A stretch of 64,000 nt of DNA. Origin: an uncultured Gammaproteobacteria bacterium (GTDB taxonomy: Bacteria > Patescibacteriota > Microgenomatia > Daviesbacterales > UBA10151). Below the pieces are notes generated by a model. That model ran no database searches, was not told where the DNA came from, and worked only from the letters and a program-made list of their open reading frames with translations. Where the stretch lies: NCBI GenBank assembly GCA_964405655.1, contig CAYOOO010000004.1, positions 9,013-73,012 on the forward strand. Direction: 5' to 3'. Within the stretch, counting starts at the first letter, position 1; each line of letters starts with the position of its first letter. The translations under genes and the position numbers were made by a program. This document shows, piece by piece, positions 13,118 through 60,092 of the stretch.

Positions 13118-14314
13118 TTACCTGTCAAGAGCGAACTGTCTCTCTTCCCAAATGAAATTGGCAGTGAAAGAATCTTTGTCTAACCTACCAAATTTTCTTA
13201 ACCTCAAACCAAGAGGCAGTAATCCTCCAAGTAAGGCACCGGCAAAAGGTAAACCAGTTTTAGGAAGTTCTTGAACCTTAGTATCGCCAGCTGCCATGAC
13301 TACTCTTGGTTGAGCTTGAGTTGTCACTACTCTCTCTACAGGAACCTCTCTAACTGTTTCCCTGACAACAGGGATCTCTCTTATCACGGTTTCCGGTGAA
13401 GGCTGGGGGAAATTAATTGTTTGTTCTTGACGTTGGCTATTTCTTATATTATTGGTGACTGAAGCAGAACTTCTGCTTGAGCTCGAACTATTACTTGAGG
13501 AGCTAGCTCTTCCACCCTCTGCCCTGACATCAATATTGATAGGTTGTGACTGTGGAAAAGGACCACTACCAGCTCTCTCTGCTTGCTGAGGTCTTGATGG
13601 TTGAGTTGGCTGTGATGGTTGTCCTGGAAATGGACCTGAACCAGGCTGTGGGCCAGCTTGTGGTCTTGGTGGAACAGGTGAGGTCTGAGATGAACCCCTG
13701 CCTGGGAAATCAAAGTCGCCTCCAGCTGGACCAGAACCTCCTGGAAATGGACCTGAACCAGGCTGTGGGCCACCATCAGCTGTTTGATTCCACCAATCTG
13801 TAGTGGGTTCAGTTTGGCCTTGGAAAAAATCAGAGGCCTCATCACCTGCTGTTTGATTCCACCAATCTGTAGTTGGATTTTGCTCACCCTGGAAGAAATC
13901 AGAGGCTGTGTTTTCCCACTGATTATCTTGTGGGCCAGTATCTGCTCCTTGATAGTCTATTGGTGGTTGCCAATCCCAGGTTGAACCTGCCGGTTGGTCA
14001 CCATCAGCTGTTTGATTCCACCAATCTGTAGTGGGTCCTTGGGTTGACTGAGAAAAATCTGAACCTGTATTTTCCCATTGATTATCTTGCGGACCTGTAT
14101 CTGCTCCTGTATACCAGTTATTACCGCTGTTACTATCAGTTGGATTCCACCAATCATCTTCTTGGGCATGAGCTGAGGTAGGTCCTTTTTGAAGAAAACC
14201 CCCAATAAGAGCTTGCTGAGTTCCAAAAGTTAGCATTAGGATAGTTAAACCAACTAAAAAGTAGTTTTTGAATCTTTTCCAATATAGACTAGTAAGAAGA
14301 GTTCTGAAGTTCAT
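13118..14314 (-). CDS. Secreted repeat-containing surface protein with LPKTG-type C-terminal sorting signal
   Basis: N-terminal signal/TM, 4-5 repeats of TDWWNQTA(D/G), a Pro/Gly/Ser/Gln-rich linker, then VQELPKTG + hydrophobic LPFAGALLGGLLPLGL + RLRKFGR. Confidence 0.6.
   Translation of the reverse strand: MNFRTLLTSLYWKRFKNYFLVGLTILMLTFGTQQALIGGFLQKGPTSAHAQEDDWWNPTDSNSGNNWYTGADTGPQDNQWENTGSDFSQSTQGPTTDWWNQTADGDQPAGSTWDWQPPIDYQGADTGPQDNQWENTASDFFQGEQNPTTDWWNQTAGDEASDFFQGQTEPTTDWWNQTADGGPQPGSGPFPGGSGPAGGDFDFPGRGSSQTSPVPPRPQAGPQPGSGPFPGQPSQPTQPSRPQQAERAGSGPFPQSQPINIDVRAEGGRASSSSNSSSSSRSSASVTNNIRNSQRQEQTINFPQPSPETVIREIPVVRETVREVPVERVVTTQAQPRVVMAAGDTKVQELPKTGLPFAGALLGGLLPLGLRLRKFGRLDKDSFTANFIWEERQFALDR
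13620..14170. repeat. Intragenic tandem DNA repeats (coding repeats of the LPKTG protein)
   Basis: Near-identical blocks ggaaatggacctgaaccaggctgtgggcca (13626 and 13743) and ccatcagctgtttgattccaccaatctgtagtgggt (13772, about 13848, 14001). Confidence 0.7.
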
Positions 14315-14362
14315 ATGTTTTTAGCTCCTTTAAGTTAAGAGTTACCAATCGCGGTTTTTCTC

Positions 14363-15421
14363 TTAAGGGTAATAAGGAGGGGTAGCCCTTCTTCGTCTGA
14401 TAAAAGCCCAAACGGCTGCACCAGCCGCAGCAACGGCTGCTACACCAGCGGCAACCCAAGCCCAACCAGGAATTTCTGGACCTCTACCTGTACCTCCTCC
14501 TGGAGGAGTAACAGTTGGTGTTGGTCTGGCTGGCATACCCAGTTCTTGAGCGCGCTTATTAGCAGCGTCTCTTAGAGCCTGAGTAGCTGCAGAAGGTGTA
14601 GCCTCTGCTGGAGGATTTGATTTTAATGGGGTCATACCTTTAGGAGCTTGCTCAGGTTTAACAGGTTGATCCTTAGGATGAATAACCTCTGCTACATTGG
14701 TTTTCTTTGCACACTCCATAGGATTCAGCTTGGCGTTATAACCATTATCTAAAGACTCAACGCTAGCACCTTCTAAGTGTCGGCCGTCAGCACTATTAGC
14801 TTTGGCCATAACTTGAACTATTTCCCCTCCAGAGCTCATTTCCACTCCATGACCTTGTGGGTTACTGACAAAGGTCAATCCTCTGGTAGAGCCTACTTTT
14901 CTGTAAACTGTTTTTCCACCCTCTTGAGATTGTTTATAAACATCAACATCCATTGGGAAGCTGACAAATGCTCTTCTCCAATTACCATTAACTCTATATT
15001 CAAGCTGTAAAGGACATTGCTCTTTAAAATTTAATGGGGCTCTAGTGGGGGCTGCAGTTGGAGCAGCTGGTTGTTTAGCAGCTTGAGCTGAAACAGTATC
15101 AGGTGATCCTAAGAATAAAGCAGCTAGTCCTGCAGCAGCAACAGAAGTCCCTGCAACTCTGGCAAATCTGCCTCTGCTTTGTCTTCTTCTAATAGATATC
15201 GGAGTTGGTTCTGAGGCATGAGCAGCAACTATTACACTGCCTGATATAACATCATCTAATACTTGGGCAAATTTTTGTTCTGGGGTTAAAGCTTGATAAG
15301 CCCTTTCTGCAACACGGGCATCCCAAGGTTGTAGTTCTGTCTCTGTTATTGGTTGTGCGGCTGTTCTTTCGGTCATATGATTTTGACTGCAAATTATACT
15401 ATGAGATATCTTAAAAGTCAA
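14363..15421 (-). CDS. Hypothetical protein with C-terminal PEIPG + TM + RRRR anchor; compositionally GC-rich
   Basis: 352 aa. An internal RRRQSRGRFARVAGTSVAAAGLAALFLG segment is Tat- or TM-like. C-terminus GPEIPGWAWVAAGVAAVAAAGAAVWAFIRRRR. Ala/Pro-rich; the DNA is visibly GC-richer than its surroundings. Confidence 0.5.
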   Translation of the reverse strand: MTFKISHSIICSQNHMTERTAAQPITETELQPWDARVAERAYQALTPEQKFAQVLDDVISGSVIVAAHASEPTPISIRRRQSRGRFARVAGTSVAAAGLAALFLGSPDTVSAQAAKQPAAPTAAPTRAPLNFKEQCPLQLEYRVNGNWRRAFVSFPMDVDVYKQSQEGGKTVYRKVGSTRGLTFVSNPQGHGVEMSSGGEIVQVMAKANSADGRHLEGASVESLDNGYNAKLNPMECAKKTNVAEVIHPKDQPVKPEQAPKGMTPLKSNPPAEATPSAATQALRDAANKRAQELGMPARPTPTVTPPGGGTGRGPEIPGWAWVAAGVAAVAAAGAAVWAFIRRRRATPPYYP

Positions 15422-15608
15422 ATTAGAGCTATGTAAGAAAAATCTCTAATCTGATTTTCAATCAGTACAGTATTATAGGTCCTTTTTATATAATTGTCAA
15501 TGGTCTATTTTAGCTTCATTTTCTTCTATATATTATTATGCTATGAGAAATTTTCAACAATTACTATAGAAAAGCAAAATTACTAGAGGATATATATAAA
15601 TGTAGTTT

Positions 15609-15617
15609 TGTGGATAA
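15609..15617 (+). promoter_or_regulatory. Perfect DnaA-box consensus 9-mer TGTGGATAA (complement TTATCCACA)
   Basis: Exact match to the DnaA box consensus inside a ~900-bp AT-rich non-coding region. Part of a 12-mer TTTGTGGATAAC that is repeated at 16316. Confidence 0.4.
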
Positions 15618-15987: not shown

Positions 15988-16197
15988 TTAATTTCTGACC
16001 ATCAATATTAATCTTTGATCAGCATTGGAAAAAATCTTCTTAACTTGAGCATCTGCATCAGTAGCTGAAGCTCTAGCTACTTTTCTGCTCTCTCGTCTTC
16101 TACTGTCTTTTTTAAGGTTTAAATTAATCATTTTTGGGTTCTCTGAAAACATAGCATAACAAAAACTATTTGTCAAGATTTTAAAAACCCATAGCAT
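15988..16197 (-). CDS. Possible small basic protein (69 aa), uncertain
   Basis: ORF ending exactly at the terminator hairpin. Basic, with no homology recognised; could be non-coding. Confidence 0.2.
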   Translation of the reverse strand: MLWVFKILTNSFCYAMFSENPKMINLNLKKDSRRRESRKVARASATDADAQVKKIFSNADQRLILMVRN

Positions 16198-16317: not shown

Positions 16318-16326
16318 TGTGGATAA
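16318..16326 (+). promoter_or_regulatory. Second perfect DnaA-box consensus 9-mer TGTGGATAA
   Basis: Exact 9-mer in the same orientation as the first, 2 bp from the end of the 16329..17156 gene. Confidence 0.4.
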
Positions 16327-16328: not shown

Positions 16329-17156
16329 TTAAAAAGGTTCTGCTGAGTTAAAAGCCATATAATTGGCAGCTTCTGGATCTAACTCTCTTAAGACCCTGTC
16401 TAGATTTTCATTATCTGGCCGAAATCTTTCTTCAAAGCTTGGTCTGTAGGCTGAAATGCTGGTTCGGCCATTCACCCAAGCCCAAGAAACAGGCTTAAAA
16501 ATATTTACTTCAAACTGACCAGTTGCGCGATTAAACCTACGAAGGCCTCCATACCAGTTGGGCGCGTATTGAACTACTATTCCTGCTCCAGCTGCCAAAT
16601 TTGCTGCTACTTGAGCACTGTTAGTATAGTAGTAAGGAAAATCTCCTGAATGTTTGAGTGCTAATATCCCTACCCTAACAGGAGTAAACCTAAAAGGAGC
16701 TGGTTCCGAAGCTGCAGCGTTACCAACTGGAGCACAATAACCTTCAGAGGCTACTCTCTGCGGATCACCACCATAAGTATTAATAATATAATTAGCAATA
16801 TAAGCAGCCTCTTCTTGCAAATGGGTTCTGCCTCCAGTCAGGCGGTCATGCCACCAGGCTGCTTGTCCATCAGCATGAAGTTGAGGTTGTCCCCCATAGC
16901 CAAAGTGAGAAAACCACCAAGGAGGAAGCCATAAGTCTCTTCCTACCACCATAGCTGATTGAGCTCGAACAACAACTGGTCTGGTAGCTTCCCTGCCTAA
17001 AGCTGCAGCTAAAGCTAGCGTACCTGCTACTCTAACTAATCTTTCAGCTGCCTGTCTTCTAGGGGTTTTATCTGAAGAAAATCCTTGGGCCAATTCAATT
17101 AACATAATTAATTTGGAAATTATAACACTATGGGTCTTTAGTGTCAAAGAGAACAC
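16329..17156 (-). CDS. Hypothetical exported protein (Tat-like signal), GC-rich composition
   Basis: 275 aa with a PRRQAAERLVRVAGTLALAAALG signal-like segment. Trp/Tyr/Gly-rich mature part. GC-richer codon usage than its neighbours. Confidence 0.45.
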   Translation of the reverse strand: MFSLTLKTHSVIISKLIMLIELAQGFSSDKTPRRQAAERLVRVAGTLALAAALGREATRPVVVRAQSAMVVGRDLWLPPWWFSHFGYGGQPQLHADGQAAWWHDRLTGGRTHLQEEAAYIANYIINTYGGDPQRVASEGYCAPVGNAAASEPAPFRFTPVRVGILALKHSGDFPYYYTNSAQVAANLAAGAGIVVQYAPNWYGGLRRFNRATGQFEVNIFKPVSWAWVNGRTSISAYRPSFEERFRPDNENLDRVLRELDPEAANYMAFNSAEPF

Positions 17157-17476: not shown

Positions 17477-18310
17477 TTGGGTTTAGAAAGAGATAGGTTC
17501 TTTCAGATGAGAAGTCCTTTAGTATCGGTCATTTTACCAGTCTATCAGCAGGAAAAAACAATTGCTTACGACTTACTTAAAGTTAAGCAGGTTTTGGATA
17601 AGTTGCGGTATCAAACTGAACTAATTTGTGTGGTGGATGGCCAAGTTGACCAAAGCTACTCTCGGGCTCAAAAGGTGGCTAAGAAATATAAAAATATTAA
17701 GGTAGTTGGCTATGACACCAACAAAGGTAAAGGCTATGCTGTTAGGTTTGGGATAGCCAAATCAAAAGGAGAGATCATCGGCTTTATTGATGCCGGGATG
17801 GATCTAAATCCCAATGGCTTATCTATGCTTTTGGAACATTTTGAGTGGTACAAAGCAGATATTATTATTGGATCAAAAAGACATCCAGTCTCTAAAGTTA
17901 AATACCCTTGGCAAAGAAGAGTACTCTCACTTGGCTATCAACTCCTAACCAGAATTCTGTTTGGTCTTAAGATTAGGGATACCCAAGTTGGGATGAAGTT
18001 TTTTAGAAGAGAGGTCTTGGAAAAAATCTTACCAAGACTACTGGTAAAAACATATGCCTTTGATATTGAAATTCTGGCTGTTTCCCATAGTCTAGGCTAT
18101 AAAAGGATCTTTGAAGCACCAGTTGAACTCAACTTTAGAAAAGCTACCTCTTCAATTACAACTCAGAAATATTTAAGGATTCTTTTTCATATGCTTTGGG
18201 ATACCCTAGCTGTTTTTTATAGATTAAAGATCCTGGGCTACTATTCCAATAAAAACCATAGACGCTGGAGATTTGACCCCGAGCTTAATTTTAGAGTTAA
18301 TACAGGTTAA
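17477..18310 (+). CDS. GT2 glycosyltransferase, polyprenol-phosphate sugar synthase (DPM1/GtrB-like)
   Basis: N-terminal VSVILPVYQQEKTI and DxD-containing (VVDGQVD, FIDAG) GT-A fold. The C-terminal hydrophobic tail is typical of GtrB-like enzymes. Confidence 0.65.
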   Translation: MGLERDRFFQMRSPLVSVILPVYQQEKTIAYDLLKVKQVLDKLRYQTELICVVDGQVDQSYSRAQKVAKKYKNIKVVGYDTNKGKGYAVRFGIAKSKGEIIGFIDAGMDLNPNGLSMLLEHFEWYKADIIIGSKRHPVSKVKYPWQRRVLSLGYQLLTRILFGLKIRDTQVGMKFFRREVLEKILPRLLVKTYAFDIEILAVSHSLGYKRIFEAPVELNFRKATSSITTQKYLRILFHMLWDTLAVFYRLKILGYYSNKNHRRWRFDPELNFRVNTG

Positions 18311-19445
18311 GACTTTTATGCGCATCCTAGTTTTATCATGGAAAGACACTAAACATCCTCTTTCAGGTGGCGCTGAACAAGTAATGCACCAACATATGAA
18401 AAGTTGGGCTCAGGCAGGACACCAAGTTTATCTTTTCTCTTCTAACTTCTATCAGGCAAAAAGATCAGAAAAAATTGAACACGTTCAAATAATCCGTCAA
18501 GGGTCGCAAGTCTTGGGTGTCCATTTAGCTGGAATACTTTATTATCTAAAGCATCGCAATCAGTTTGATTTAGTAGTAGATCAGTTTCACGGATTGCCAT
18601 TTTTTACACCATTATATGTAAAGAAACCAAAGCTGGCTATAATTCAGGAGACTGCTAGAGAGGTTTGGTTCTTAAATTTTTTACCTTGGCCTCTAAACTG
18701 GATAGTAGGACTGATTGGTTTTTTAACTGAACCTTTAATCTTTAAGCTCTACAGAAACGTGACCTTCATGACGGCCTCTGAATCAACCTATAATGATTTA
18801 ATCAAATTGGGTATATCTCCGAAAAAAATTATTATTGTGCCTCATGGTCTTAAGGGTATAAATAGACAGCTCAATCTTAAAAGACCTAAAACTCCAACTA
18901 TTAGCTACTTAGGAACACTCTCCAAAGATAAAGGCATTGAGGACGCATTAGATTGTTTTGAGATCTTAAATAAAACAGGTAATTTTAATTATTGGGTAAT
19001 TGGCAAGAGTGAAACAGCCTCATATACTAAAAGGATTGAAAAAATGGCACAAAAATTAGGGCTTATAAACAAAGTTAAATTTTGGGGTTATGTCTCAGAC
19101 AAGATGAAGTATAAATTGCTGTCTAAATCACATCTACTAATAAATCCCTCTGTTCGTGAGGGTTGGGGTTTGGTTAATCTAGAAGCAAACCTGGTAGGAA
19201 CCCCAGTGGTAGCCTACAACTCTCCTGGTTTAGTTGATTCCGTCAAAGATAATGTTACAGGGATAATTTGTCAAAAGAATACTCCTCAACAGCTTGCAGA
19301 AAAAGTCACAGAGATATTAAACAATAAAGCTAGATACTCTAAACTACAAAAAGGAGCATATCTTTGGGGTAAGAAACACTCCTCCTGGAATAAATCTCAA
19401 AAATCAAGCTTAAAATTAATAGAAAGAGTTGCTTATGCCCGCTAG
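18273..19445 (+). CDS. GT4 (group 1) glycosyltransferase
   Basis: EX7E-type motif REGWGLVNLEANLVGTPVVA in the C-terminal half. Length is 390 aa. Confidence 0.7.
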   Translation: MTPSLILELIQVKTFMRILVLSWKDTKHPLSGGAEQVMHQHMKSWAQAGHQVYLFSSNFYQAKRSEKIEHVQIIRQGSQVLGVHLAGILYYLKHRNQFDLVVDQFHGLPFFTPLYVKKPKLAIIQETAREVWFLNFLPWPLNWIVGLIGFLTEPLIFKLYRNVTFMTASESTYNDLIKLGISPKKIIIVPHGLKGINRQLNLKRPKTPTISYLGTLSKDKGIEDALDCFEILNKTGNFNYWVIGKSETASYTKRIEKMAQKLGLINKVKFWGYVSDKMKYKLLSKSHLLINPSVREGWGLVNLEANLVGTPVVAYNSPGLVDSVKDNVTGIICQKNTPQQLAEKVTEILNNKARYSKLQKGAYLWGKKHSSWNKSQKSSLKLIERVAYAR

Positions 19446-20244
19446 CCCTTCTTTATCTATCATCATACCGACTAGAAATGAGCAGAAAAACATTCTAAGG
19501 TGCTTGGCCTCAGTTAAAAGACAAAAGTATTCGGGAAGGATTGAAACTATTGTAGTTGACAGTAACTCTTCTGATCAAACAGCTAAAATTGCCCGCAGAT
19601 TGGCTACAAAAGTTATTTTAGGAGGATTTGAAAGGTCAGAACAGCGCAATATTGGCGCCAAGGCATCAGTGGGCCAGTACTTAGTTTTTATTGATGCTGA
19701 CATGAAACTAAGCACACCCGAGCTTTTAGCTGAGGCTACAAAAATTGCTAGTCAGGGTAAATTTATTATCGCTTTCCCTGAGCAATCTGTTGGATCAAAT
19801 TTTTGGGAAAAATCAATTGCCCTGGAAAGAAATCTCTACAAACATGAGCAAGTCATTACAGCAGCCAGGGTTTATCCTAGAAAACTATTTTTTGATCTGG
19901 GGGGGTTTGATGAAAAGTTAGTGGCTGGAGAGGATTGGGATTTATCAATCAATGCGCAAAAACTGGGCTACAAGCTCATCTATACCAAAAGAGAAATTTT
20001 GCACTATGAACATATTAGTTCTTTAGGCTCTTTTCTTAGGAAGAAAAACTATTATGTCCGAAATATCTCATTATTTAAAAATAAACATCCTGAAGAGTTT
20101 ACCTTGAAATCCAGCCTAAAAATAAGGTTAGGTATTTTTTTAAAAAACTGGACTTTATTTCTGAGGGATCCCCTACATTCCTTGGGCTTTCTTTTCTTAA
20201 AGACCCTTGTCTGGTACGATTGGAAAAAATCAGAAAACGCTTAA
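19429..20244 (+). CDS. GT2 glycosyltransferase
   Basis: LSIIIPTRNEQKNI N-terminus; DADM and ED motifs (FIDADMK). Confidence 0.7.
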   Translation: MLMPASPSLSIIIPTRNEQKNILRCLASVKRQKYSGRIETIVVDSNSSDQTAKIARRLATKVILGGFERSEQRNIGAKASVGQYLVFIDADMKLSTPELLAEATKIASQGKFIIAFPEQSVGSNFWEKSIALERNLYKHEQVITAARVYPRKLFFDLGGFDEKLVAGEDWDLSINAQKLGYKLIYTKREILHYEHISSLGSFLRKKNYYVRNISLFKNKHPEEFTLKSSLKIRLGIFLKNWTLFLRDPLHSLGFLFLKTLVWYDWKKSENA

Positions 20245-21167
20245 TGAAAACTAAGTTACCAACTGTTTCAATCATTATCCCGACAATGAATAGGAAAGAC
20301 TCACTGCTTAGGACTTTAAGATCTATTAGTTTCTTAAAGTACCCTCAAAAAAGATATGATGTAGTGATTATTAATAACGCCTCTTCTGACGGTACATCTA
20401 AGCTAGTAAGGAAAAATTATCCAAAATTTAAACTGATCGAAAACAGCCACAATGTTGGCTTTGCCCCAGCTTTAAACCAGGGGATAAAAAATAGTAAAGG
20501 GCAATTTGTCTTTATTACAAACGATGATGTAATCTTTCATAAAGATTGCCTAACTGAGCTAATAAATTTAATACAAACAGATAAAAAAATCGGTGTAGTT
20601 GGCGGAAAGATGTTTTTTCAGGATCAGCCTGAGATTATGGCTTTACCTGGCTTTAAGGTTAACTTATGGCTAGGTTATTTCCCCTATGATTATAGGGGAG
20701 CAGATCAGGTTAGAGAGACCGACATAACTACCGGCGGATGTACATTAATTAGACGGTCGATTCTAAATAAATCGGGAATGTATGATGATGGTTTCTTCTT
20801 CTGCGGCGAAGATTATGATTTTTGCTTTAGAGTCAGATTAGCTGGTTTTAAAATATTATATTGTCCTAAAGCTATTGTTTGGCATGGATTTTTAAGCTCA
20901 GCTAAAGCTACAGACAACTTTAATCAGCTTTTTGCCCATTATCGAGGCAAATTTAAATTTATGCTAATTCACGCTTCAATTTTACAAATATTAACCTTTT
21001 TACCTATCCAGTTATTTTTTGGACCATTTTTTAGTTATCTTCAATCTCGGAAAAAAACTTTACTGCCGATGATAAAAGCTCTAATCTGGAACATAGTAAA
21101 CTTGCCAGCCACTTTTAAGGCCAGAGGAAAGGTTAGTAAACTGCGCTTAGGTTATCCATATGTCTAA
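20220..21167 (+). CDS. GT2 glycosyltransferase with C-terminal TM tail
   Basis: VSIIIPTMNRKDSL...TNDDVIF. C-terminal ILQILTFLPIQLFFGPFF helix shared with the paralogs at 24077 and 26029. Confidence 0.7.
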   Translation: MEKIRKRLMKTKLPTVSIIIPTMNRKDSLLRTLRSISFLKYPQKRYDVVIINNASSDGTSKLVRKNYPKFKLIENSHNVGFAPALNQGIKNSKGQFVFITNDDVIFHKDCLTELINLIQTDKKIGVVGGKMFFQDQPEIMALPGFKVNLWLGYFPYDYRGADQVRETDITTGGCTLIRRSILNKSGMYDDGFFFCGEDYDFCFRVRLAGFKILYCPKAIVWHGFLSSAKATDNFNQLFAHYRGKFKFMLIHASILQILTFLPIQLFFGPFFSYLQSRKKTLLPMIKALIWNIVNLPATFKARGKVSKLRLGYPYV

Positions 21168-21927
21168 TTTATACGGTGAACGTTATGTTCCTGGTCAAAA
21201 AGACGACCCATTTTTTTTGGAGCATATCCAAAGATACCAATTCTCAAAACCATTTATCAAAAATAAAAAGGTTTTAGATTTAGGCTGTGGTACGGGTTAT
21301 GGCAGTTTTGAATTAATAAATTTAGGTGCAAAACAAGTTTATGCAGTTGATATTGACAAACAAGCTATCAGTTTTGCTAAACGTCATTTTCAAGCTAAGA
21401 ACCTCTTTTTTCAACAAGCTAGCGCTACCTCCCTACTTTTTCCAGATCAAAGCTTTGAGATAGTTGTTTCCTTTGAAGTAATTGAGCATATTAAAGATTA
21501 CCAAAGCTATTTAAAAGAAGTTTTTAGGGTCTTGAAATCTCAAGGTATCTTCATTTTTTCTACTCCTAATAAAGAGCAATATAGAAAAGGTACATCAGCT
21601 TACCACTTTAAGGAGTTCAGTGCTCAAGAGCTTAAGAAACTGCTGCCTAAGGCTGGCTTTAAAGTTAGACTCTTTGGGCAATTTTTTGGAAATAAAGAAT
21701 TTAGACAAGCGCAATCAACCTATTTCAAAAGATACCAAATCTTAACATTAGGAGGCAAAAAAACTTTGAAAAAAATGCTAAATCTATTTTCGCCTCAATT
21801 TAAGGCTTCAATTTATAAAGCTTTCTTCAAAGTTGCTCCTGCAATCAGCCCAGATCAGATATACATTAAGAAGGGTGGACTTGATCAAGCTCTAACTTTA
21901 ATTGGGGTTTGTCAAAAGATTAATTAA
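21160..21927 (+). CDS. Class I SAM-dependent methyltransferase
   Basis: Motif I VLDLGCGTGYGS, then the post-I acidic residue (AVDID) and motif II region (VVSFEVIEHI). Confidence 0.75.
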   Translation: MSNLYGERYVPGQKDDPFFLEHIQRYQFSKPFIKNKKVLDLGCGTGYGSFELINLGAKQVYAVDIDKQAISFAKRHFQAKNLFFQQASATSLLFPDQSFEIVVSFEVIEHIKDYQSYLKEVFRVLKSQGIFIFSTPNKEQYRKGTSAYHFKEFSAQELKKLLPKAGFKVRLFGQFFGNKEFRQAQSTYFKRYQILTLGGKKTLKKMLNLFSPQFKASIYKAFFKVAPAISPDQIYIKKGGLDQALTLIGVCQKIN

Positions 21928-23047
21928 GTCTTAGGACCTTAAGATAAACTGCTTTAAGCCTCTCACGAGCAATATTTACCTCAAAAAGCTTAAGAAACCT
22001 TTTCCTTGCTTCTTTCCCCATCTTTCTTCTGATATCTGATCTAGTAATTAAAATCTCCAAAGTTTTATAAAGCTGGCTAGTATTATTTGGTTTTATAACA
22101 AAACCAGTTTTTTGATCCTCCACTAGCTCAGACAAAGCATAAACTGAGCTTACAATGGTAGGAATACCAAAAGATTGAGCCTCAAGCACCACCAGTCCAA
22201 ACCCTTCTGCCTTGGGAGGCACTAAAACAAAGATATCAGCTTGAGGATAATATCTAGTTAGTAAAGTTTTATAATCAACATAATCTTGATGGGTTATCAA
22301 AGGATTTGAAATATCTAGGTAACTTGGCACAGGCCCAAGTATTGTTAACCTAAGATTTGTATATAACTTGATAAGTTTATTAAAGGCCTGAAGTAAAATA
22401 AGCCCTCCCTTTCGCTCAAACCAAACCCCAGCAAATAAAATATTAATATTTCTCTTCTTAGTCTTTTTTTGTTTGAACCTGGTTTTTGGTATTCCTGGAT
22501 AGATTACTTCTATTTTTTTAGGATCTGCACCCAATTTTTGATGTACATCTTTGGCAAACTTTGAAAAAACGAGTAGCTTTTGAGCATGTTTTATGTTTAA
22601 TTCCTGATCATAAATCCCAAATATTCTACTTATTAGACCCCTAATAAAGTAGTTGATTTTAATTCTCCAGTTTGGCCAACCCAAATAGTCTTTCAAAAAA
22701 AGTGAATTTGAAGAGCTATCACTTAAAATAACTGGTGGTTTAATTTTGCCATCTAGTTTCAGGCTGTAAGCATGGCTATGTATCAAATCGTATTTCCTCT
22801 TTAACTTAAGACAGATAAAACCTGCTCCAAGAGGCAAAATCCTCAGTTTCATTAGAATAGACAGTCTGGATTGCCAGGCTGTATATTCAATTTCCCCTTT
22901 TTCCAAAGCATCTTTAAAGTGAATATATTCAACACCTTGGGGCGGGTATTTTAATAAAATTTGGGTATAAGTATTTTCGCCTCCCATCAGATTTTTTAAA
23001 TCTCCTGGTACTCTAGGATCAATCGGGCTAATAAGAAGCACTCTCAT
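21920..23047 (-). CDS. GT4 (group 1) glycosyltransferase
   Basis: EGFGLVVLEAQSFGIPTIVS motif. Length is 375 aa. Confidence 0.7.
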   Translation of the reverse strand: MRVLLISPIDPRVPGDLKNLMGGENTYTQILLKYPPQGVEYIHFKDALEKGEIEYTAWQSRLSILMKLRILPLGAGFICLKLKRKYDLIHSHAYSLKLDGKIKPPVILSDSSSNSLFLKDYLGWPNWRIKINYFIRGLISRIFGIYDQELNIKHAQKLLVFSKFAKDVHQKLGADPKKIEVIYPGIPKTRFKQKKTKKRNINILFAGVWFERKGGLILLQAFNKLIKLYTNLRLTILGPVPSYLDISNPLITHQDYVDYKTLLTRYYPQADIFVLVPPKAEGFGLVVLEAQSFGIPTIVSSVYALSELVEDQKTGFVIKPNNTSQLYKTLEILITRSDIRRKMGKEARKRFLKLFEVNIARERLKAVYLKVLRLN

Positions 23048-23154
23048 ATTTTTTGTATACCTAATTTAATATTTTATGTTATATACTCGTCTGGCTCGAG
23101 TTTGCAACTTTAAAATTTACAAATTAGAGCATTTTAGGTATAAATTATTGCACC

Positions 23155-24087
23155 ATGGATCTTCAAACAAAACAAGCAAAAACTATCATGATGACAGGAG
23201 CAAGTTCGCTTCTAGGGAGAGGGATCATTAGATCTTTACCAGATAACTACCAGTTAGTTGCCTGTTATCGTAATCATAAAATCCCAGTCACTGCAAGGGT
23301 TAAAGCATACAAATTGGATATATCTAATAACTACCAGACGGAAAAAGCACTGGAGAAGATAAAACCAGATCTGTTGATTCATGCAGCAGCCCTAAGTAAC
23401 GTAGATTACTGTGAGTCACACCAGAACGAAGCTTGGATGACTAATGTTCAGAGTACTTTTAAGTTAGTTAGATTATGCGAGCAATCAGATATTCCAATCA
23501 TTTTTATTTCTACCAATGCTGTATTTGATGGTAAAAAAGAAGTCTACAAGGAAGATGACCAGGTTAGTCCTCTTAATTTTTATGGTCAAACAAAAGCTGA
23601 AGGTGAAAAAATTGTCCGTAAAAGTCAAGTACCATGGATTATTTTACGGCTGATTACTATGTATGGCTGGCAGCCAGAAAACGCCCGTCTAAATCCTGTG
23701 ACTTGGGTATTAAGTGAACTCGAAGCCAAACATTCTATTAAAGTAGTAGACGATGTTTGGCTAAATCCACTTTATTATCTTGACGGGGGTCAGGTCATCT
23801 GGAAGTTAATAGATAGCCAGGCTGAAGGAATTTGGCATGTAGCAGGTAGTGAAACTTTAAGCAGATACGACTGGGCTAAAAAAACTGCCCAAATTTTTCA
23901 ACTAGATTCAAGTTTAATCTCCCCCACCTCCAGTTCCTTTTTTTCAGGCAAAATAGCCCCAAGACCTCATAGAACTATTTATTCAACTTGGAAGTTGAAT
24001 AATAAGCTAGGTTATCAAACCAAAAATATTTCTGAAGGACTTATGGCAATGTTAATGGAAAAAAAACTACCTCACGATGTACCCTAA
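23155..24087 (+). CDS. RmlD-like (dTDP-4-dehydrorhamnose reductase family) SDR sugar-nucleotide reductase/epimerase
   Basis: IMMTGASSLLGRGI Rossmann motif, YGQTKAEGE (YxxxK). ~310 aa, with no extended C-terminus. Confidence 0.55.
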   Translation: MDLQTKQAKTIMMTGASSLLGRGIIRSLPDNYQLVACYRNHKIPVTARVKAYKLDISNNYQTEKALEKIKPDLLIHAAALSNVDYCESHQNEAWMTNVQSTFKLVRLCEQSDIPIIFISTNAVFDGKKEVYKEDDQVSPLNFYGQTKAEGEKIVRKSQVPWIILRLITMYGWQPENARLNPVTWVLSELEAKHSIKVVDDVWLNPLYYLDGGQVIWKLIDSQAEGIWHVAGSETLSRYDWAKKTAQIFQLDSSLISPTSSSFFSGKIAPRPHRTIYSTWKLNNKLGYQTKNISEGLMAMLMEKKLPHDVP

Positions 24088-24982
24088 AGTAGCGATTATT
24101 GCCATAAACTATAACGGTAAAGAGCTAATTAATGAATTTTTAAATTCTACCAAAAAGCTCAAATACCCAAAAAGTAAGATCCAAATAATTGTCATCGATA
24201 ATCACTCAACTGATGGGTCAAACACGTTAATTAATAAATATTATCCCAGTGTTAAATTAATCCGATTAGAAGATAACATCGGATATGGTCCGGCAGCAAA
24301 TATCGGGATCAAAAGGTCTTCAGGCAACTATCTATTTATAGCCAATAACGACCTGCTCTTTCATCCAAACAGCATAAAAATATTGGTTAAATACATCCAA
24401 AAACACCCGGAAATCGGGATTTTAGGCGGGAAAATAATCTCAAGCACAGATCATACAAAAATTGCCTCCGGTTACCAAACATTTAACTATTATACCGGCC
24501 AAATCGATATAGGTTCGAAAGATATAGCAAGAATCACCAAAGTCCAGTGGGTACAAGGCTGCGCAATGCTAATTCCCCGATCAGTTTTTAAGGAAGTGGG
24601 CTTGTTTGATGAGAATTTTTCTAAAATTTATTTTGAAGATTTGGACTTGTGTAAAAGGGTCCAGGAAGCGGGCTTTAAAACAGTAATCAACCCAAACTCT
24701 ATTTTTTACCATTACCAGTCATATACTATGGACAAGGTGGTAAACCTATCTACAAAATGGTTTTTTTGGCACAAGAATAAGATTCAGTACGTTATCAAGC
24801 ATGCTAACATACTTCAAATCTTGACTGTAATTATTCTCCAAGGATTTTTTAGCCTTTACTGGACTATAATCAAAAACCAACCTAGCTTAACTACTTTTGT
24901 CAAAGCATTAGATTGGAACATTCGGCATTTTTCTATCATCAGATATAGGAATAATACTGATTTTAAAGTAAAAAAATTATAA
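24077..24982 (+). CDS. GT2 glycosyltransferase with C-terminal TM tail
   Basis: VAIIAINYNGKELI...ANNDLLF...FEDLDLC. C-terminal ILQILTVIILQGFFSLYW tail. Confidence 0.7.
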   Translation: MYPKVAIIAINYNGKELINEFLNSTKKLKYPKSKIQIIVIDNHSTDGSNTLINKYYPSVKLIRLEDNIGYGPAANIGIKRSSGNYLFIANNDLLFHPNSIKILVKYIQKHPEIGILGGKIISSTDHTKIASGYQTFNYYTGQIDIGSKDIARITKVQWVQGCAMLIPRSVFKEVGLFDENFSKIYFEDLDLCKRVQEAGFKTVINPNSIFYHYQSYTMDKVVNLSTKWFFWHKNKIQYVIKHANILQILTVIILQGFFSLYWTIIKNQPSLTTFVKALDWNIRHFSIIRYRNNTDFKVKKL

Positions 24983-25000
24983 TCATTAAACCTAAACAAT

Positions 25001-26029
25001 ATGTACAAACAACCCCAGAAAGCTAAAATCGGTGAGATTCAATTCAGACAGAAACTCACTCTTCAACACCTTGGGGAAGCTACTTCCTTCAAAGGAGCAC
25101 CAAACGCTAGGCAGATACTACAACTGCTCAAAGAAAGAGTAAAAAACAGTACAAAAATATTTAATGAATTGATTAATAAAAAGATTACCCTCTCTCCCTT
25201 TTTGGAAATTGGGGCGGAAAAGGGTCAAAGGTCAGCTTTACTAGTCTCAAAATTTAATGCTCAAGGATTCGCTCTAGATCTGTCATTTGAAAGTTTGAGT
25301 GCAACAAAAATATTCGCTAAAAAGTTGCGGTTAATTAAACTGCCTATTTTAATCTGTGCAGATGCTGAAAATTTACCATTTGCAGATAGCTCAATACCAT
25401 TTGTCTTTGCTTTTGAAACTCTTCATCATTTTCCTAAACCAGATTTAGCAATTGCTGAGATGAAAAGGGTCTGTTCTCCAGGTGGGCATGTTTACTTCTC
25501 AGAGGAACCAATTAGCCAAAGGTTTAATCTGACAATTTGGCGAAGAGATTACAACTTAAATTTAGTAGAGAAATTACTGAAACTCCTATTAATCTTACCA
25601 TTTCTGTCTAGGCTTGGCGGCGTTGAGAATAAATACGGAGTCTTAGAAAATGACTTCCCTATTTCGACCTGGCAAAAAGCTCTAGCTATATTCGAGAAAC
25701 CAGATGTCACCGTTGAACCTGTTTTCTGGGGTCCAAAATCGACCTTTATCACCCGCAATCAGTCTTGGCCGATTAATCTACTGACCCGTATTTTAATTGA
25801 GCTTGAGGGGGGCGGAATCACTCTCCTTGCAAAAATGGAAGGTAATTTACCAAAATCTAAAAAAGATATATTCGTATCTTTACGATGCCCGGTATGCAAA
25901 AAATCCGGCTTAAATAAATTTAGCTCAAGCTTGGTATGCCAAAGGTGCAAAGTTAATTATCCGATTAAAGATGAAGTTTTAATATTGCTACCGCCCCCGG
26001 AGCGAAAAAAACTTTATCCTAAATTCTGA
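25001..26029 (+). CDS. SAM-dependent methyltransferase with C-terminal Trm112-like zinc-ribbon
   Basis: LEIGAEKGQRS (motif I-like), FAFETLHHFP, PGGHVYFSE. C-terminal CPVCKK...CQRCK CxxC pair. Confidence 0.5.
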   Translation: MYKQPQKAKIGEIQFRQKLTLQHLGEATSFKGAPNARQILQLLKERVKNSTKIFNELINKKITLSPFLEIGAEKGQRSALLVSKFNAQGFALDLSFESLSATKIFAKKLRLIKLPILICADAENLPFADSSIPFVFAFETLHHFPKPDLAIAEMKRVCSPGGHVYFSEEPISQRFNLTIWRRDYNLNLVEKLLKLLLILPFLSRLGGVENKYGVLENDFPISTWQKALAIFEKPDVTVEPVFWGPKSTFITRNQSWPINLLTRILIELEGGGITLLAKMEGNLPKSKKDIFVSLRCPVCKKSGLNKFSSSLVCQRCKVNYPIKDEVLILLPPPERKKLYPKF

Positions 26030-26874
26030 TGTGGCCAAAACTTACCATTATATTTCCAACCTATAACAATTGGCAGCTAACGCTTAGAACCCTAAAATCC
26101 GTTGGACAAATTAATTATCCAAAAAGTCAGCTTGAGATTATTATCATAGATAATAACTCCAAAGATAATACTGCTAAAAATATTAAAAAGTTATTTCCTA
26201 ACATAATACTTCTCTCTCAAAAATCAAACCTGGGTTTTGCTAAAGCGATTAATATTGCCTCCAAGGCAGCTACTGGGGAATACTTATTTATTACCAACAA
26301 TGATGTTTCCTTCAAAAAAACATATCTAGCTAGATTACTTAGTTTTGCCATTAATACCCCAAAACTGGGTGTTTGCGGAGGCAAGATTGTCACAGAATCT
26401 CTGAACGGAAAATATTTTGATGGAGCAGTCAATGTCTCCCATTCGACTTCAGGACTAAAAAGACTTGAAAACTATCACAAAACTCAGGAGGTTGATTATA
26501 TAAGCGGAGCGGGAATGTTGGTAAAAAAGGATATTTTTGAAAAAGTTAAAGGATTTGATACAAAGTTCCAGTTTTATTTTGAGGATTTGGATTTTTGCTT
26601 TAGGGTTAAAAAACTGGGCTATCAGATTATCTATTTTCCTCAAGCGACTATGTATCATAAACAATCTTCTACAGCCTCAACTATGCCACTAAAGTGGCAG
26701 AATGATGTTTGGATTCAAGGAAAGATGCTTGTCATTAAAAAACATTTTAGGTTTTGGGTGATACCATTTATTATTTTGCTTAAAAGCTTATTTTACTTGT
26801 ACATTTTAGTAAAAAGGCGTCAGAATCGCTTTGGTTCTTTACTTCGAGCCATTACTAAAGTATTTTTAGCCTAA
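26029..26874 (+). CDS. GT2 glycosyltransferase with C-terminal TM tail
   Basis: LTIIFPTYNNWQLT...TNNDVSF...FEDLDFC. Paralog of the GT2s at 20220 and 24077. Confidence 0.7.
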   Translation: MWPKLTIIFPTYNNWQLTLRTLKSVGQINYPKSQLEIIIIDNNSKDNTAKNIKKLFPNIILLSQKSNLGFAKAINIASKAATGEYLFITNNDVSFKKTYLARLLSFAINTPKLGVCGGKIVTESLNGKYFDGAVNVSHSTSGLKRLENYHKTQEVDYISGAGMLVKKDIFEKVKGFDTKFQFYFEDLDFCFRVKKLGYQIIYFPQATMYHKQSSTASTMPLKWQNDVWIQGKMLVIKKHFRFWVIPFIILLKSLFYLYILVKRRQNRFGSLLRAITKVFLA

Positions 26875-26876
26875 AT

Positions 26877-28313
26877 ATGCTCAGGCTTCCTACACTAATT
26901 GTTGTTTTTGCCTTTACTATCAGGATTTTATATGCGCTTTATTCACATGATTTTTGGTTAGACGAAGCCTTTAATTTCTTTATCTCTCAAAATGAACCCA
27001 AAACTATTATTTATGCTTTATCTTTTGATAACTGGCCACCTCTTTATTCACTCTTTATGCACTACTGGCAAAAGATTTCAGAAAATTACTTCTGGCTGAG
27101 ACTACCCTCGGTTATATTCGGATCTCTGCTGTTAATAATTATCTATCAAACTTCTAAAAAGTTATTTAATGTTAGTATTGCCTTAGCTGCAATCCTTCTT
27201 GCCTCAGTCTCACCTGCTCTTGTCTACTTTTCAGCTGAAAACCGACCGTATTCACTATTTACACTCCTTACCAGTTTGACAGTTTTACTGTTCTTAAGGT
27301 TAAGAGATAAAGAGTCATTTATAAACTATTTGCTTTTTGTCATCTCTGCAATTTTGACAATTTATACCCACTACTTTGGTCTTTTATTGATTTTGGCACT
27401 AATTGCCTCCTCGAAATTTACCTCTTTTTTAAAGCTAAAGTTCGAGAATATTTTTTCTGCCTTAGCAATAATTATTTTAGCCTCAAGTCCATGGTGGTTT
27501 TATAGTTACTTAAAACCTCATCCAGAGTGTCTTTGTTTACCACCGTTACCGGCGATACTGGCTACTTTCGGTTTTTTTGCAATTGGAGGTAGCGGATTGA
27601 TTAATTTAAAGCATTTTTTCCAAGTTCAAACTCCACTCTTTATTAAGTTGTTTTTAGGTGTATTTATTGCGATATCCACTTTTCTTTTTTTTAGAGGGCT
27701 AAAAAAATTATCAAATAGAAAAGTCCTGTGGCTTTACTTAATTATCTTTTCTTCAATATTATTGATCTTAGTTTTATCTCTCTTTTTTAATATTTTTTCA
27801 GTCAGAAGCTTGATTTTTCTTATTCCGATCTACTTAATTGTAATCGCCATAGCTCTTGACAAGATGGGTAAATTTATTTATCTAAACTTAAGATTTAGAT
27901 TATTATCAATATACTTTGTTACTTTACTAATCATCTTGATAATAACTGTCCAAAGACCATTTTTTAACTTAGAGCCACTTAAGCAGATGTCTGACAAATT
28001 ATCCCAGCTAGACCGACCTCAAACTGCTATCATCCATGCAAATATCTACACCTATTTGCCTGCAAAGTACTACTACCCTACCTCTCGCCAGTCTGTTTTA
28101 AAACCATCTCTGCCTGAGCAATTGTCACATTCACTTAATATCCAAATTCTTGATCAAAAAGTATTGAAAGAAAGCTCACAAATAGTCTTGGTATATGCAA
28201 ATGACCGTTATGATAAACAAAGCTTTGATAATCTTAGAACTATCCTAGTAAATATTAAACATAAATCCGCGAAACATTCTTTGGGAAAGATAAACCTAGA
28301 AATATTTGAATAA
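26877..28313 (+). CDS. GT-C fold membrane glycosyltransferase (ArnT/PMT_2-like)
   Basis: First loop has FWLDEAFNF (a DE motif after TM1). More than 10 TM helices over 478 aa. Confidence 0.55.
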   Translation: MLRLPTLIVVFAFTIRILYALYSHDFWLDEAFNFFISQNEPKTIIYALSFDNWPPLYSLFMHYWQKISENYFWLRLPSVIFGSLLLIIIYQTSKKLFNVSIALAAILLASVSPALVYFSAENRPYSLFTLLTSLTVLLFLRLRDKESFINYLLFVISAILTIYTHYFGLLLILALIASSKFTSFLKLKFENIFSALAIIILASSPWWFYSYLKPHPECLCLPPLPAILATFGFFAIGGSGLINLKHFFQVQTPLFIKLFLGVFIAISTFLFFRGLKKLSNRKVLWLYLIIFSSILLILVLSLFFNIFSVRSLIFLIPIYLIVIAIALDKMGKFIYLNLRFRLLSIYFVTLLIILIITVQRPFFNLEPLKQMSDKLSQLDRPQTAIIHANIYTYLPAKYYYPTSRQSVLKPSLPEQLSHSLNIQILDQKVLKESSQIVLVYANDRYDKQSFDNLRTILVNIKHKSAKHSLGKINLEIFE

Positions 28314-30655: not shown

Positions 30656-31815
30656 ACAGGGGAAAAAAAATATCAATTGCTATCTTAACTGAAGTTTTAA
30701 ACACTCATTCAGGCTCAAGAGCTCCAATTGAACTATCTCTTGCCCTAAACAAACTAAACTCTAAAAAAATCGAGCTTTATCTAGTGTGTTTCAGTTACAA
30801 ACTAGATAAGAAGCTTAAGAAAAAATTAGAGTCTCAGAATATAAAAATATTTATTTTAAGAGTTAATAACTTATCTTTTCTATCAAAACTCAAAGCCAGC
30901 CTTAAGCTTTTTGAAATATTTAAAAAAAATTCAATTGATACTATCTTATTCCATGGTTCACTACCGATGTTTTTGATTGCCAGAGTGTTTAAAAAGCCGA
31001 TTATTACTACTTACTATGGAACACAATTTAATGCTTTTGAGGAAAAGTTCTTACCTAACGAAAAGATCTCTCTTTTCCAGAAATTAATAAATCAGTTAGG
31101 AAACTTAGCAATATATGTCTTTCAAGCAGTACCAGTACTTTTATCCAACAAGGTGGTAACCATGACTAAATATGGTAGCGATGAATGCTATAAATTATTT
31201 AGAAGGAAAGTCGGTTTTATATATCAGGGTGCTGATTCAGATAGTTTAAGATCATTAAAATCAAAAGTCGTCAATAAAAATTCTCAAATTACCTTTATCT
31301 CAGTCAGCCGTATTACACCATACAAGGGTTTCCATATTTTAATCAAAGCATTTAATGGTCTACAGCCAAATAAAATAAAAAGAAGACTTATTATTGTTGG
31401 TTCGTCTGTACGCAAAAGATATTTAGATTATTTAAAAGCGTTAGGAGATAAAAATGTTTATTTTTTTACTGATATATCTGATAAAAAATTAATAACTCTT
31501 TATTCCAAATCAAATATTTACATAGGTGCTGACAGATATCTTTTTTTTGGTCTACCACCCTTAGAGGCTGCGAAGTTTGGAATTCCATCAATTCTGATGG
31601 ACTACTGTTCAGCAAGAGAGATAGTAGAAAATAACGAGACTGGATTTGTTGTAAATTCTGATTCAGAGTTACGAAATAGAATGACAGAACTAGCAACAAA
31701 TGTAAAACTTAGACTAAGCATGGGTTTTGCTGCAAAAGAACGCACACAAAAATTATTCAGGTGGGAAGAAACAGCCAAAAAATACTACAGCCTGATTAAA
31801 AATCTTAATTCTTAA
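30652..31815 (+). CDS. GT4 (group 1) glycosyltransferase
   Basis: FFGLPPLEAAKFGIPSILMD motif. Length is 387 aa. Confidence 0.65.
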   Translation: MNRGKKISIAILTEVLNTHSGSRAPIELSLALNKLNSKKIELYLVCFSYKLDKKLKKKLESQNIKIFILRVNNLSFLSKLKASLKLFEIFKKNSIDTILFHGSLPMFLIARVFKKPIITTYYGTQFNAFEEKFLPNEKISLFQKLINQLGNLAIYVFQAVPVLLSNKVVTMTKYGSDECYKLFRRKVGFIYQGADSDSLRSLKSKVVNKNSQITFISVSRITPYKGFHILIKAFNGLQPNKIKRRLIIVGSSVRKRYLDYLKALGDKNVYFFTDISDKKLITLYSKSNIYIGADRYLFFGLPPLEAAKFGIPSILMDYCSAREIVENNETGFVVNSDSELRNRMTELATNVKLRLSMGFAAKERTQKLFRWEETAKKYYSLIKNLNS

Positions 31816-32494
31816 ATCCCACTATAAATAAAGTCCCACAAAATTGTAAAATTGGGCAGAAGATAGGCTTAATTGTACTTCTAATACCAACCTTACTTAA
31901 AAGGTTCCTTAATCTTGGTGATGGAGGGAAACCAAAGGAAAAACATCCTTGAATCCTGATATCTTTAAACCCAACTCTTTGAAATGATTCTTTCCAAAAT
32001 TTTGCGCCCTTAACATTTATGTGGGTCGGATCATATGGTAATAATACTTTCCCTAGTATAGTACCCTCTAGATCCCCATTAGGGGTTGAGGCTAAGAATA
32101 TCCCTCCCTTATTTAATACCCTAAAAGCCTCAGCAATTACAAAATCTGAGTTCTGAGTATGTTCTAGCAGGTCAAAAGCAGTTACTGCATCCAATAAACT
32201 ACCTTTAAATGGCCACCTATCCTTAGACACATCTACAATTTTGACAGTAGCTTTGGTTCTCTTTCTTGCCTGAGATACAGCATAATCAGAAATTTCCAGA
32301 CCGAAGGTTTCGATATTTGCCTGGTCACAGAAACTTAAAAACTCACCAAGCGCGCAACCAACGTCCAGAATACTGCCTATCTGTTTTTTTCTTGATAACA
32401 GAAACTTGAGATGATATTTTAAGATCTGCTCTCGCTCATTGCTTTCTAACTTATAAAAGTCATCAAAATACTTTTTTCCGTAGCTATTCCCCAT
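31805..32494 (-). CDS. Class I SAM-dependent methyltransferase
   Basis: ILDVGCALGEF motif I and LASTPNGD (motif post-II). Length is 229 aa. Confidence 0.7.
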   Translation of the reverse strand: MGNSYGKKYFDDFYKLESNEREQILKYHLKFLLSRKKQIGSILDVGCALGEFLSFCDQANIETFGLEISDYAVSQARKRTKATVKIVDVSKDRWPFKGSLLDAVTAFDLLEHTQNSDFVIAEAFRVLNKGGIFLASTPNGDLEGTILGKVLLPYDPTHINVKGAKFWKESFQRVGFKDIRIQGCFSFGFPPSPRLRNLLSKVGIRSTIKPIFCPILQFCGTLFIVGFKN

Positions 32495-38451: not shown

Positions 38452-38557
38452 CAGACAGAATTAATTAAATAATTGTTTTGATAGATTTTCCTCTTCAGTT
38501 GTTATACCATAACAAGATCAAATCTTAAGAGTCAAGTTATATTAATCAGGCTATAGA

Positions 38558-40495: not shown

Positions 40496-40496
40496 C

Positions 40497-45444: not shown

Positions 45445-45446
45445 AC

Positions 45447-46598: not shown

Positions 46599-46603
46599 AT
46601 CTT

Positions 46604-48166: not shown

Positions 48167-48212
48167 ATCTTTTTCCTTTACAAACTAGTCTGTCTATGTA
48201 AAATTAGCTTAG

Positions 48213-49678: not shown

Positions 49679-49729
49679 GAATATTTTTCTTGAATTATGA
49701 ATTTAGATTTTGTTATATAGTTAATTTTA

Positions 49730-51103: not shown

Positions 51104-51111
51104 AAAAGCTT

Positions 51112-51541: not shown

Positions 51542-51549
51542 CATACTAA

Positions 51550-60089: not shown

Positions 60090-60092
60090 ATT

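Follow-up and report, generated by a model that had tools for sequence, protein, structure and literature searches.

Surface proteins anchored by sortases, such as Staphylococcus aureus protein A and Streptococcus pyogenes M protein, carry a signal peptide at one end and, at the other, an LPxTG pentapeptide followed by a membrane helix and a basic cluster; this canonical C-terminal signal, modeled by TIGR01167 and PF00746, is appended to many unrelated passengers. Other C-terminal sorting domains are those of Haft and colleagues, in which PEP-CTERM is paired with exosortase, PGF-CTERM with archaeosortase, and GlyGly-CTERM with rhombosortase. Here, we analyze an LPKTG protein of 398 amino acids (aa), encoded on the minus strand at positions 13118..14314 of a 64,000-nt stretch of contig CAYOOO010000004.1 (the window), from an uncultivated, ultrasmall bacterium of groundwater that belongs to Ca. 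Daviesiibacteriota within the Microgenomates group of the Patescibacteria group. We interpret it as a Sec-exported, disordered surface protein that would be anchored in the manner of a sortase substrate and that belongs to a Daviesbacteria-specific family with an extended C-terminal sorting domain, an interpretation to which we assign a probability of about 0.68. The sortase-type LPxTG layout is known; what is new is the lineage-specific, extended sorting signal.

The extended C-terminal sorting domain

The open reading frame (ORF) call is supported by a homolog of the same length, MBI2021333.1 (HYS93_00415), from a second assembly of the same species (Candidatus Daviesbacteria, GCA_016176395.1), which is identical at 397/398 positions and differs by one D-to-N change. 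A Shine-Dalgarno sequence, AAAGGAG, can be read 10 nt 5′ of the ATG (14325..14331; this and all other features of the gene are on the minus strand). The protein begins with a long putative signal peptide (aa 1 to 50; 14165..14314), in which a hydrophobic region (aa 19 to 41), seen by hydropathy and lying within a helix predicted by AlphaFold2 (AF2) at aa 3 to 42, is followed by QKGP (aa 42 to 45) and TSAHA|QE, and the −3/−1 rule predicts signal peptidase cleavage after AHA50. Near the other end, the LPKTG pentapeptide (aa 350 to 354; 13253..13267), with a presumed sortase cut between T353 and G354, stands 49 residues from the C-terminal end. A hydropathy peak (aa 354 to 372) follows directly, and the membrane helix is placed at aa 355 to 370 (13205..13252), with P356, P367, and G369 invariant in the alignment; next comes a basic stop-transfer cluster, RLRKFGR (aa 371 to 377; 13184..13204), the family consensus of which is RLRKFG. 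Every element of the layout that an earlier note had read from this DNA, namely, a signal peptide, Trp-rich repeats, a Pro/Gly spacer, LPKTG, a transmembrane segment, and RLRKFGR, is present.

The protein does not end with its short basic tail. RLRKFGR is followed by 21 residues, LDKDSFTANFIWEERQFALDR, which include a linker whose length differs across the family (aa 378 to 384; 13163..13183) and a motif conserved in the family, ANFIWEERQF (aa 385 to 394; 13133..13162). The earlier note had seen that the ORF runs past the basic tail, putting the excess at ~25 codons, and had treated it as unusual; far from being peculiar to one ORF, its motif is conserved in, and characteristic of, a family of ~400 cluster representatives.

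The family emerged from a database search that returned 14 relatives, all of which share both termini, the passengers being unrelated to that of the query except in one protein, P0002. In an alignment of the last 66 to 76 residues of the relatives (A1), L-P-K-T-G is invariant, as are P27 (P356), P38 (P367), and G40 (G369), and W60, E62, and R63 are found in at least 90% of the sequences. A profile made from A1 (~67 C-terminal residues) and run against 1.84 billion cluster representatives matched 400 of them at an E value of ≤0.001 and 321 at ≤1e-10, and each of the 150 matches listed covered the profile and was located at the extreme C terminus of its protein. Among 158 members, the pentapeptide is LPKTG in 133, LPRTG in 12, and LPSTG in 3, and a set of 125 members keeps its P, T, and G without exception. 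W-x-x-[RK] occurs in 148 of the 158, with a tail consensus of [AP]-N-[YSF]-[IL]-W-[EQ]-[ED]-R-[QE]-[FL]-K; the tail Trp lies 25 to 43 residues (median, 40) past the L of LPxTG, and a median of 5 residues separates the tail motif from the C-terminal end. Because the C-terminal profile and W-x-x-[RK] recur across members, the extension is, as judged from the sequences, a defining and conserved part of the sorting signal. Wherever the tail motif was found in ~650 kb of related loci, LPxTG accompanied it. A C terminus not conserved in homologs was part of what the earlier note had said would refute its reading; the C terminus proved to be the most conserved part of the protein.

The passengers of 125 members are mostly unannotated, apart from a few with DUF11 and single cases of PKD, CARDB, CHRD, and collagen; they are diverse and of surface type. 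The long signal peptide is shared, with a hydrophobic core, ~10 residues, [QK][KR]GP-x4-A, and then a predicted cleavage site, and the motif [QK][KR]GP-x4-A is found in 41/127 full-length members, the LPKTG protein included. The family is defined by its sorting signals and not by its passenger region.

When one genome per species was scanned for [KTQ][EQ]LPKTGLP, 35 loci were confirmed, or 31 once duplicates had been removed. In 28/31 of these loci, rho is found no more than 10 kb from the family gene, which is directly upstream of rho in the three loci that were read gene by gene (the window, where the two genes are 159 nt apart, and the loci L001 and L003). This proximity would suit an explanation in which the tail is conserved at the nucleotide level, as a rho promoter, a leader, or a Rho utilization element placed in the 3′ end of the gene. 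Against it, in 42 nonredundant genes, synonymous codons vary freely at the conserved LPxTG residues and at every conserved tail residue; third-position entropy at conserved residues is 1.0 to 1.9 bits, except at K352 (0.5) and the single-codon W389, and in the tail, Ala is encoded by 4 codons and Arg by 6, with Phe, Ile, and Asn codons used about 1:1. In addition, the same tail is found in upstream tandem paralogs that do not adjoin rho and in members from loci that lack rho. DNA- or RNA-level conservation tied to rho, an extremely improbable explanation in our judgment, is ruled out by the codon analysis and by the paralogs that do not adjoin rho. Since synonymous codons vary freely while the residues are conserved, selection on the tail acts at the protein level.

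When AF2 was given a 13-sequence alignment, it predicted, with modest confidence, helices at aa 355 to 364 and 366 to 375 with a break near P367 and, in the tail, a short helix at aa 385 to 397 (mean predicted local distance difference test [pLDDT] score of ~73 for the last block, again of modest confidence). By the positive-inside rule, the tail would be cytoplasmic. An amphipathic-helix model of the tail was considered and rejected, the hydrophobic moment being 0.17, versus 0.32 for shuffled sequences. What fits best is a short linear motif that is read by a protein partner, and the Trp-acidic tail in the cytoplasm would probably bind such a partner.

A similar C-terminal layout was observed in two adjacent, paralogous large membrane proteins of the window, of 1025 aa (32484..35561, minus strand) and 973 aa (35530..38451, minus strand), one of which has a PTPS_related/YfhO-like match. 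Both end, as the LPKTG tails do, with a last helix, a basic stretch, ~10 residues, and a Trp-acidic motif (WWQKEDGE or WWQKEDE). The window and related loci contain 479 ORFs of ≥100 aa, of which 39 show such a Trp-acidic motif within their final 16 residues; 37 are LPXTG proteins, and the other 2 are these paralogs. The WWQKEDE ends hint that the reader of the tail may serve more than sortase substrates.

Set beside the canonical LPXTG signal, the Daviesbacteria signal differs in that a conserved P-x-VV-x-x-AG precedes the pentapeptide, L-P is conserved after LPKTG, the helix contains an invariant P-x-G, and the 21 residues past the basic cluster carry ANFIWEERQF; the stretch that starts with the L of LPxTG and runs to the C-terminal end measures 37 to 57 residues (median, 48.5), compared with ~35 in protein A. 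The domains described by Haft and colleagues resemble the Daviesbacteria domain in being short, in combining a signature motif with a helix and basic residues, in having conserved residues inside the helix, and in being lineage restricted yet common to many otherwise unrelated secreted proteins. The Daviesbacteria signature, however, is LPxTG instead of PEP, PGF, or GG, and whereas the domains of Haft and colleagues are not known to continue past the basic cluster, here that cluster is followed by a conserved cytoplasmic motif. The LPKTG protein does not have the signature of an exosortase, archaeosortase, or rhombosortase substrate, the NCBIfam CTERM models do not match it, and no window ORF matches the exosortase or rhombosortase families.

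The signal peptide also has a parallel. In staphylococci and streptococci, YSIRK-G/S signal peptides pair with LPXTG anchors, so that a subset of anchored proteins has a distinctive signal peptide motif and a two-ended sorting code; the 41/127 Daviesbacteria proteins with [QK][KR]GP-x4-A resemble this subset, but in them the motif follows the hydrophobic core, as part of the c-region, instead of preceding it, and the sequences are unrelated. It is possible, though doubtful, that Daviesbacteria have a two-ended sorting code of their own, made up of a QKGP-type signal peptide together with LPKTG, a kinked helix, and a tail read by a cytoplasmic or membrane partner.

Sortase and the fate of the anchor

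All steps of the mechanism that we propose are inferred from anatomy. The long N-terminal signal peptide would direct Sec export and be cut after AHA50. The passenger would be disordered, with the acidic Trp-rich repeats distal and a Pro/Gly/Ser-rich stalk with (V/I)REVP repeats spanning the wall, and the C-terminal helix and RLRKFGR would keep the precursor membrane bound. A sortase whose gene lies elsewhere in the genome would cut between T353 and G354 and link the protein to peptidoglycan, and cleavage would leave behind a 45-residue membrane peptide, G354-R398. The proline-kinked helix and ANFIWEERQF would be conserved because a protein partner reads them, its role being either substrate recognition or retention before cleavage or the handling or sensing of the leftover peptide afterward. 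Under the two-ended code, which we hold to be doubtful, the partner might be a sensor, a specialized sortase that has a cytoplasmic portion, or a protease (FtsH, for example) that requires a tail of ~20 residues to clear the leftover peptide. A precedent for a membrane peptide left by sortase having a role of its own comes from Streptococcus gordonii, in which the sortase-cleaved C-terminal peptide (“C-pep”) of LPXTG adhesins is reportedly sensed; no conserved cytoplasmic motif is known to be involved there, unlike with the Daviesbacteria tail.

Several observations weigh against sortase anchoring. No PF04203 match was found by a Pfam scan of the 51 window ORFs of ≥120 aa, and neither a scan of the window for [LIVM]xTC in a sortase context nor a phmmer search of it with S. 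aureus SrtA gave a match, in agreement with the earlier note, which had reported no sortase gene there. Nor was a sortase found in the 9 kb beyond the left end of the window, as represented in the sister assembly, or, at the 35 related loci, up to 10 kb away from the family gene. The locus scan covered 650 kb and used T[LIVM]xTC, [LIVMFA]x[TS]C in a His/Arg context, and phmmer with SrtA; its one weak match is a LytR_C protein, and a sortase adjoining the gene was therefore rejected. At the profile level, neither Pfam nor NCBIfam matched the whole LPKTG protein, its 69-residue C terminus, or the C termini of 13 relatives, even at an E value of ≤10, and TIGR01167 and PF00746 missed the Daviesbacteria C terminus both with and without the tail. 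As positive controls, we used the C termini of protein A (S. aureus) and M protein (S. pyogenes), and these scored 23.3 and 28.7 bits against TIGR01167 (cutoff, 15.9) and 35.7 and 55.1 bits against PF00746 (cutoff, 20). The layout, called “textbook” in the earlier note, deserves that description for its motifs and not for its profile: it is that of a sortase substrate at the motif level but falls outside the curated families that detect the controls. Finally, classical sortase substrates are not known to have a strongly conserved membrane helix together with a cytoplasmic motif, and because both are strongly conserved here, the anchor might stay uncleaved.

Taken to its conclusion, that last point would yield a type I membrane protein in which LPKTG is kept without sortase processing and the helix and tail form a permanent anchor to a cytoplasmic partner. 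The helix, with P356, P367, and G369, and the tail are as conserved as LPxTG itself, which would be unusual for a discarded segment, and the lack of a sortase nearby in any locus examined and of matches to the LPXTG anchor hidden Markov models (TIGR01167 and PF00746) also speaks for this alternative. It leaves unexplained, however, why L-P-x-T-G should be invariant, since a plain membrane anchor offers no obvious reason for that. An invariant pentapeptide with constant spacing to the membrane helix and basic cluster that follow it is the signature of sortase recognition. In Gram-positive bacteria, moreover, sortase genes are often unlinked to the genes of their substrates. On balance, we consider an uncleaved anchor distinctly unlikely.

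Searches of the literature on LPKTG or sortase in Daviesbacteria or the Candidate Phyla Radiation (CPR) brought up general statements only. Meheust et al. (2019; PMC6744442) reported that more than half of CPR genomes have a Pfam-recognizable sortase family, described it as “near ubiquitous in Microgenomates,” and found it in 1020 CPR genomes of a second dataset. Sortases so widespread in Microgenomates need substrates, which again speaks against an anchor that is never cleaved. One complete Microgenomates genome encodes a sortase. Because the family is nearly ubiquitous in Microgenomates and this complete genome encodes one, a sortase is likely to be present in the genome of the LPKTG protein as well.

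The passenger and its Trp-rich repeats

Between the two sorting signals, the passenger begins with a Trp-rich acidic repeat region (aa 51 to 182; 13769..14164), in which DWWN occurs four times (aa 54, 97, 150, and 173) and DNQWEN twice (aa 77 and 130) and whose composite unit of ~35 aa reads GADTGPQDNQWENTxSDFxQxxQxPTTDWWNQTA; Trp makes up 15/398 residues of the whole protein. A Pro/Gly/Gln-rich spacer with two copies of GPQPGSGPFPG and one of GSGPFPQ (aa 183 to 257; 13544..13768) leads to a Ser/Asn-rich low-complexity block (aa 258 to 300; 13415..13543), which has a counterpart in many family members. The last part, a preanchor segment (aa 301 to 349; 13268..13414), has (V/I)RE(V/I)P repeats and, before LPKTG, a P-x-VV-x-x-AG motif that recurs in homologs, columns P7, V9, and V10 of A1 being conserved; this segment is likely to be the wall-spanning part. 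Three ORFs overlap the gene in other frames (13444..13887, minus strand; 13546..13803, plus strand; and 13784..13984, plus strand); they are shadows of a repetitive, compositionally biased coding sequence and no separate genes.

At the DNA level, the repeats are less uniform than the “near-identical blocks” of the earlier note would suggest. That description is correct for a 17-nt core, which occurs three times exactly, and for a 34-nt block, which occurs twice exactly (13622..13655 and 13739..13772), but the larger repeat units of 67 and 116 nt are only 76 to 79% identical, and Tandem Repeats Finder reported no array. Variation in copy number between strains, which had been thought likely, was not borne out: the two available assemblies carry equal repeat counts. 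Only between species does the number vary, as in P0002 (32% identical), which has the repeat module in another copy number with the Trp positions kept. A variant of the repeat motif, STDWYN, is found in P0053.

Glycan binders typically have aromatic-rich repeats, and the conservation of the module and its Trp positions in P0002, along with the STDWYN variant in P0053, would be consistent with a folded carbohydrate- or cell wall-binding module that made the protein a glycan-binding adhesin, an alternative for the passenger that is compatible with the sortase-type anchoring that we favor. However, the repeat units are short, acidic, and of low complexity, and they had no match in Pfam, NCBIfam, or PHROG and no PDB sequence match better than an E value of 1.3. 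In a single-sequence run, AF2 found helices only at aa 3 to 42 and 355 to 375, with no secondary structure and a pLDDT of <50 over aa 47 to 350, and the passenger is accordingly modeled as intrinsically disordered, a prediction that we treat as such. With no profile match and no predicted folded domain, the repeats also do not belong to the known classes of glycan- or wall-binding repeats (choline-binding CW_binding_1, WxL, SLH, and LysM). We therefore regard a folded glycan-binding module as rather unlikely; the carbohydrate-binding homology that the earlier note had proposed to look for is unsupported, and carbohydrate binding by the repeats would be a guess. The passenger is also not that of a sortase-assembled pilin, as it is predicted to be disordered and has no Pfam match to an Ig-like (CnaB/DUF11-type) domain; DUF11 is present in a few other family members.

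The rho-adjacent locus and what the signal implies

Downstream of the LPKTG gene and on the same strand lie rho and genes for a LysM-M23 peptidase, a class A-like beta-lactamase-fold protein, and a histidine phosphatase. Among the 31 loci, the family gene is near a LysM-M23 peptidase gene in 24 and near a gene for a TRAM/PIN-type membrane protein in 22, and each locus has one to four tandem copies of it. The locus is a positionally conserved, fast-diverging surface protein slot. The sole match from Berkelbacteria has LPKTG without the tail. The records of the 35 loci are titled Daviesbacteria, Microgenomates, “Patescibacteria group,” or unnamed metagenome-assembled genomes (MAGs). The TRAM/PIN, LPKTG, rho, and LysM-M23 locus is also carried by MAGs titled “uncultured Gammaproteobacteria bacterium” (binchicken, SRP co-assemblies); 14 of the 35 loci bear such titles and show this synteny, and the contig of one of them is also that of a Daviesbacteria-like locus (the loci so titled are L007, L010, L012, L013, L016-L018, L022, L023, L025-L027, L032, L036, and L039). 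Because these loci share Daviesbacteria-type synteny, their titles look like mislabels.

The three genes directly upstream of the LPKTG gene have no database matches. The nearest, 48 nt away, encodes an Ala-rich secreted protein (14363..15376, 337 aa, or 14363..15421, 352 aa from a TTG; minus strand) with a C-terminal helix of its own and RRRR-ATPPYYP; the gene is also called in the sister assembly, the protein has no Pfam, NCBIfam, or PHROG match, and the gene is probably cotranscribed with the LPKTG gene. A sigma-70-type promoter match, TTGACA-17-TATAAT (15472..15500, minus strand; a perfect match to the consensus only), lies 5′ of this two-gene unit. In L001 and L003, the slot of the Ala-rich gene is occupied by genes for proteins of 312 and 360 aa without database matches; these gave no phmmer match to the Ala-rich protein of the window, and the C termini differ. 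Next comes a small basic ORF of ~46 to 69 aa (15988..16197, minus strand) that ends in LILMVRN and has no Pfam match; it is conserved in no fewer than seven further Daviesbacteria loci, all distinct, where it likewise lies upstream of the LPKTG genes. The third gene encodes a protein of 258/275 aa (HYS93_00400; 16329..17156, minus strand) with a twin-arginine-like RR before a hydrophobic segment, one invariant G-x-C, and a G-x-W motif, and divergent relatives of it are found upstream of LPKTG genes in seven other loci. HYS93_00400 was considered as a possible processing enzyme and set aside: Pfam does not match it, the only database homolog is the protein itself, and its synteny is patchy.

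Three independent Logan assemblies, L042-L044, from groundwater runs that contain this organism (SRR12113430, SRR12113383, and SRR12113424), all end near position 15955, ~30 nt after the small ORF and just upstream of the two-gene surface protein unit; strain heterogeneity or a hairpin-rich intergenic region may account for the common break. The perfect DnaA box consensus TTATCCACA occurs three times in the window (15609..15617; 16318..16326, minus strand; and 34104..34112, minus strand), compared with 0.63 expected, and at least three were present in 2/100 shuffles. Two of the boxes share a longer sequence, GTTATCCACAAA, and lie in the intergenic regions that flank the small ORF and the 275-aa gene. 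Farther along, an envelope glycan gene island (17477..53307) encodes at least 13 GT2/GT4 glycosyltransferases, 6 S-adenosylmethionine (SAM) methyltransferases, 3 PMT_2-type proteins, a Polysacc_synt flippase, an AlgX-like SGNH protein, a carbamoyltransferase, and an RmlD-type reductase. It is followed by seven consecutive genes (53524..63886, minus strand; 708, 149, 486, 610, 201, 286, and 978 aa) with no Pfam match, several of whose products look like membrane proteins. An Rfam scan found two tRNAs only.

Members of the CPR, or Patescibacteria, are thought to live attached to host cells, and because of this presumed way of life, their surface proteins should be central to their biology; to our knowledge, almost none of these has been characterized. 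For the LPKTG gene itself, our conclusion is a modest one: it occupies a conserved locus and encodes a surface protein that is variable and predicted to be disordered. For the sorting signal, the analysis provides a sequence rule (LPKTGLP, a helix with P-x-G, a basic cluster, and [AP]N[YSF][IL]W[EQ][ED]R[QE][FL] near the end) that, for one phylum, picks out hundreds of otherwise unannotatable surface proteins missed by current Pfam and NCBIfam anchor models. The conserved cytoplasmic tail suggests that sortase-type sorting in this lineage includes an extra recognition or cleanup step. If the two-ended code were true, the display of a fast-evolving, rho-adjacent major surface protein would be coupled to an intracellular step that has no counterpart in classical sortase systems.

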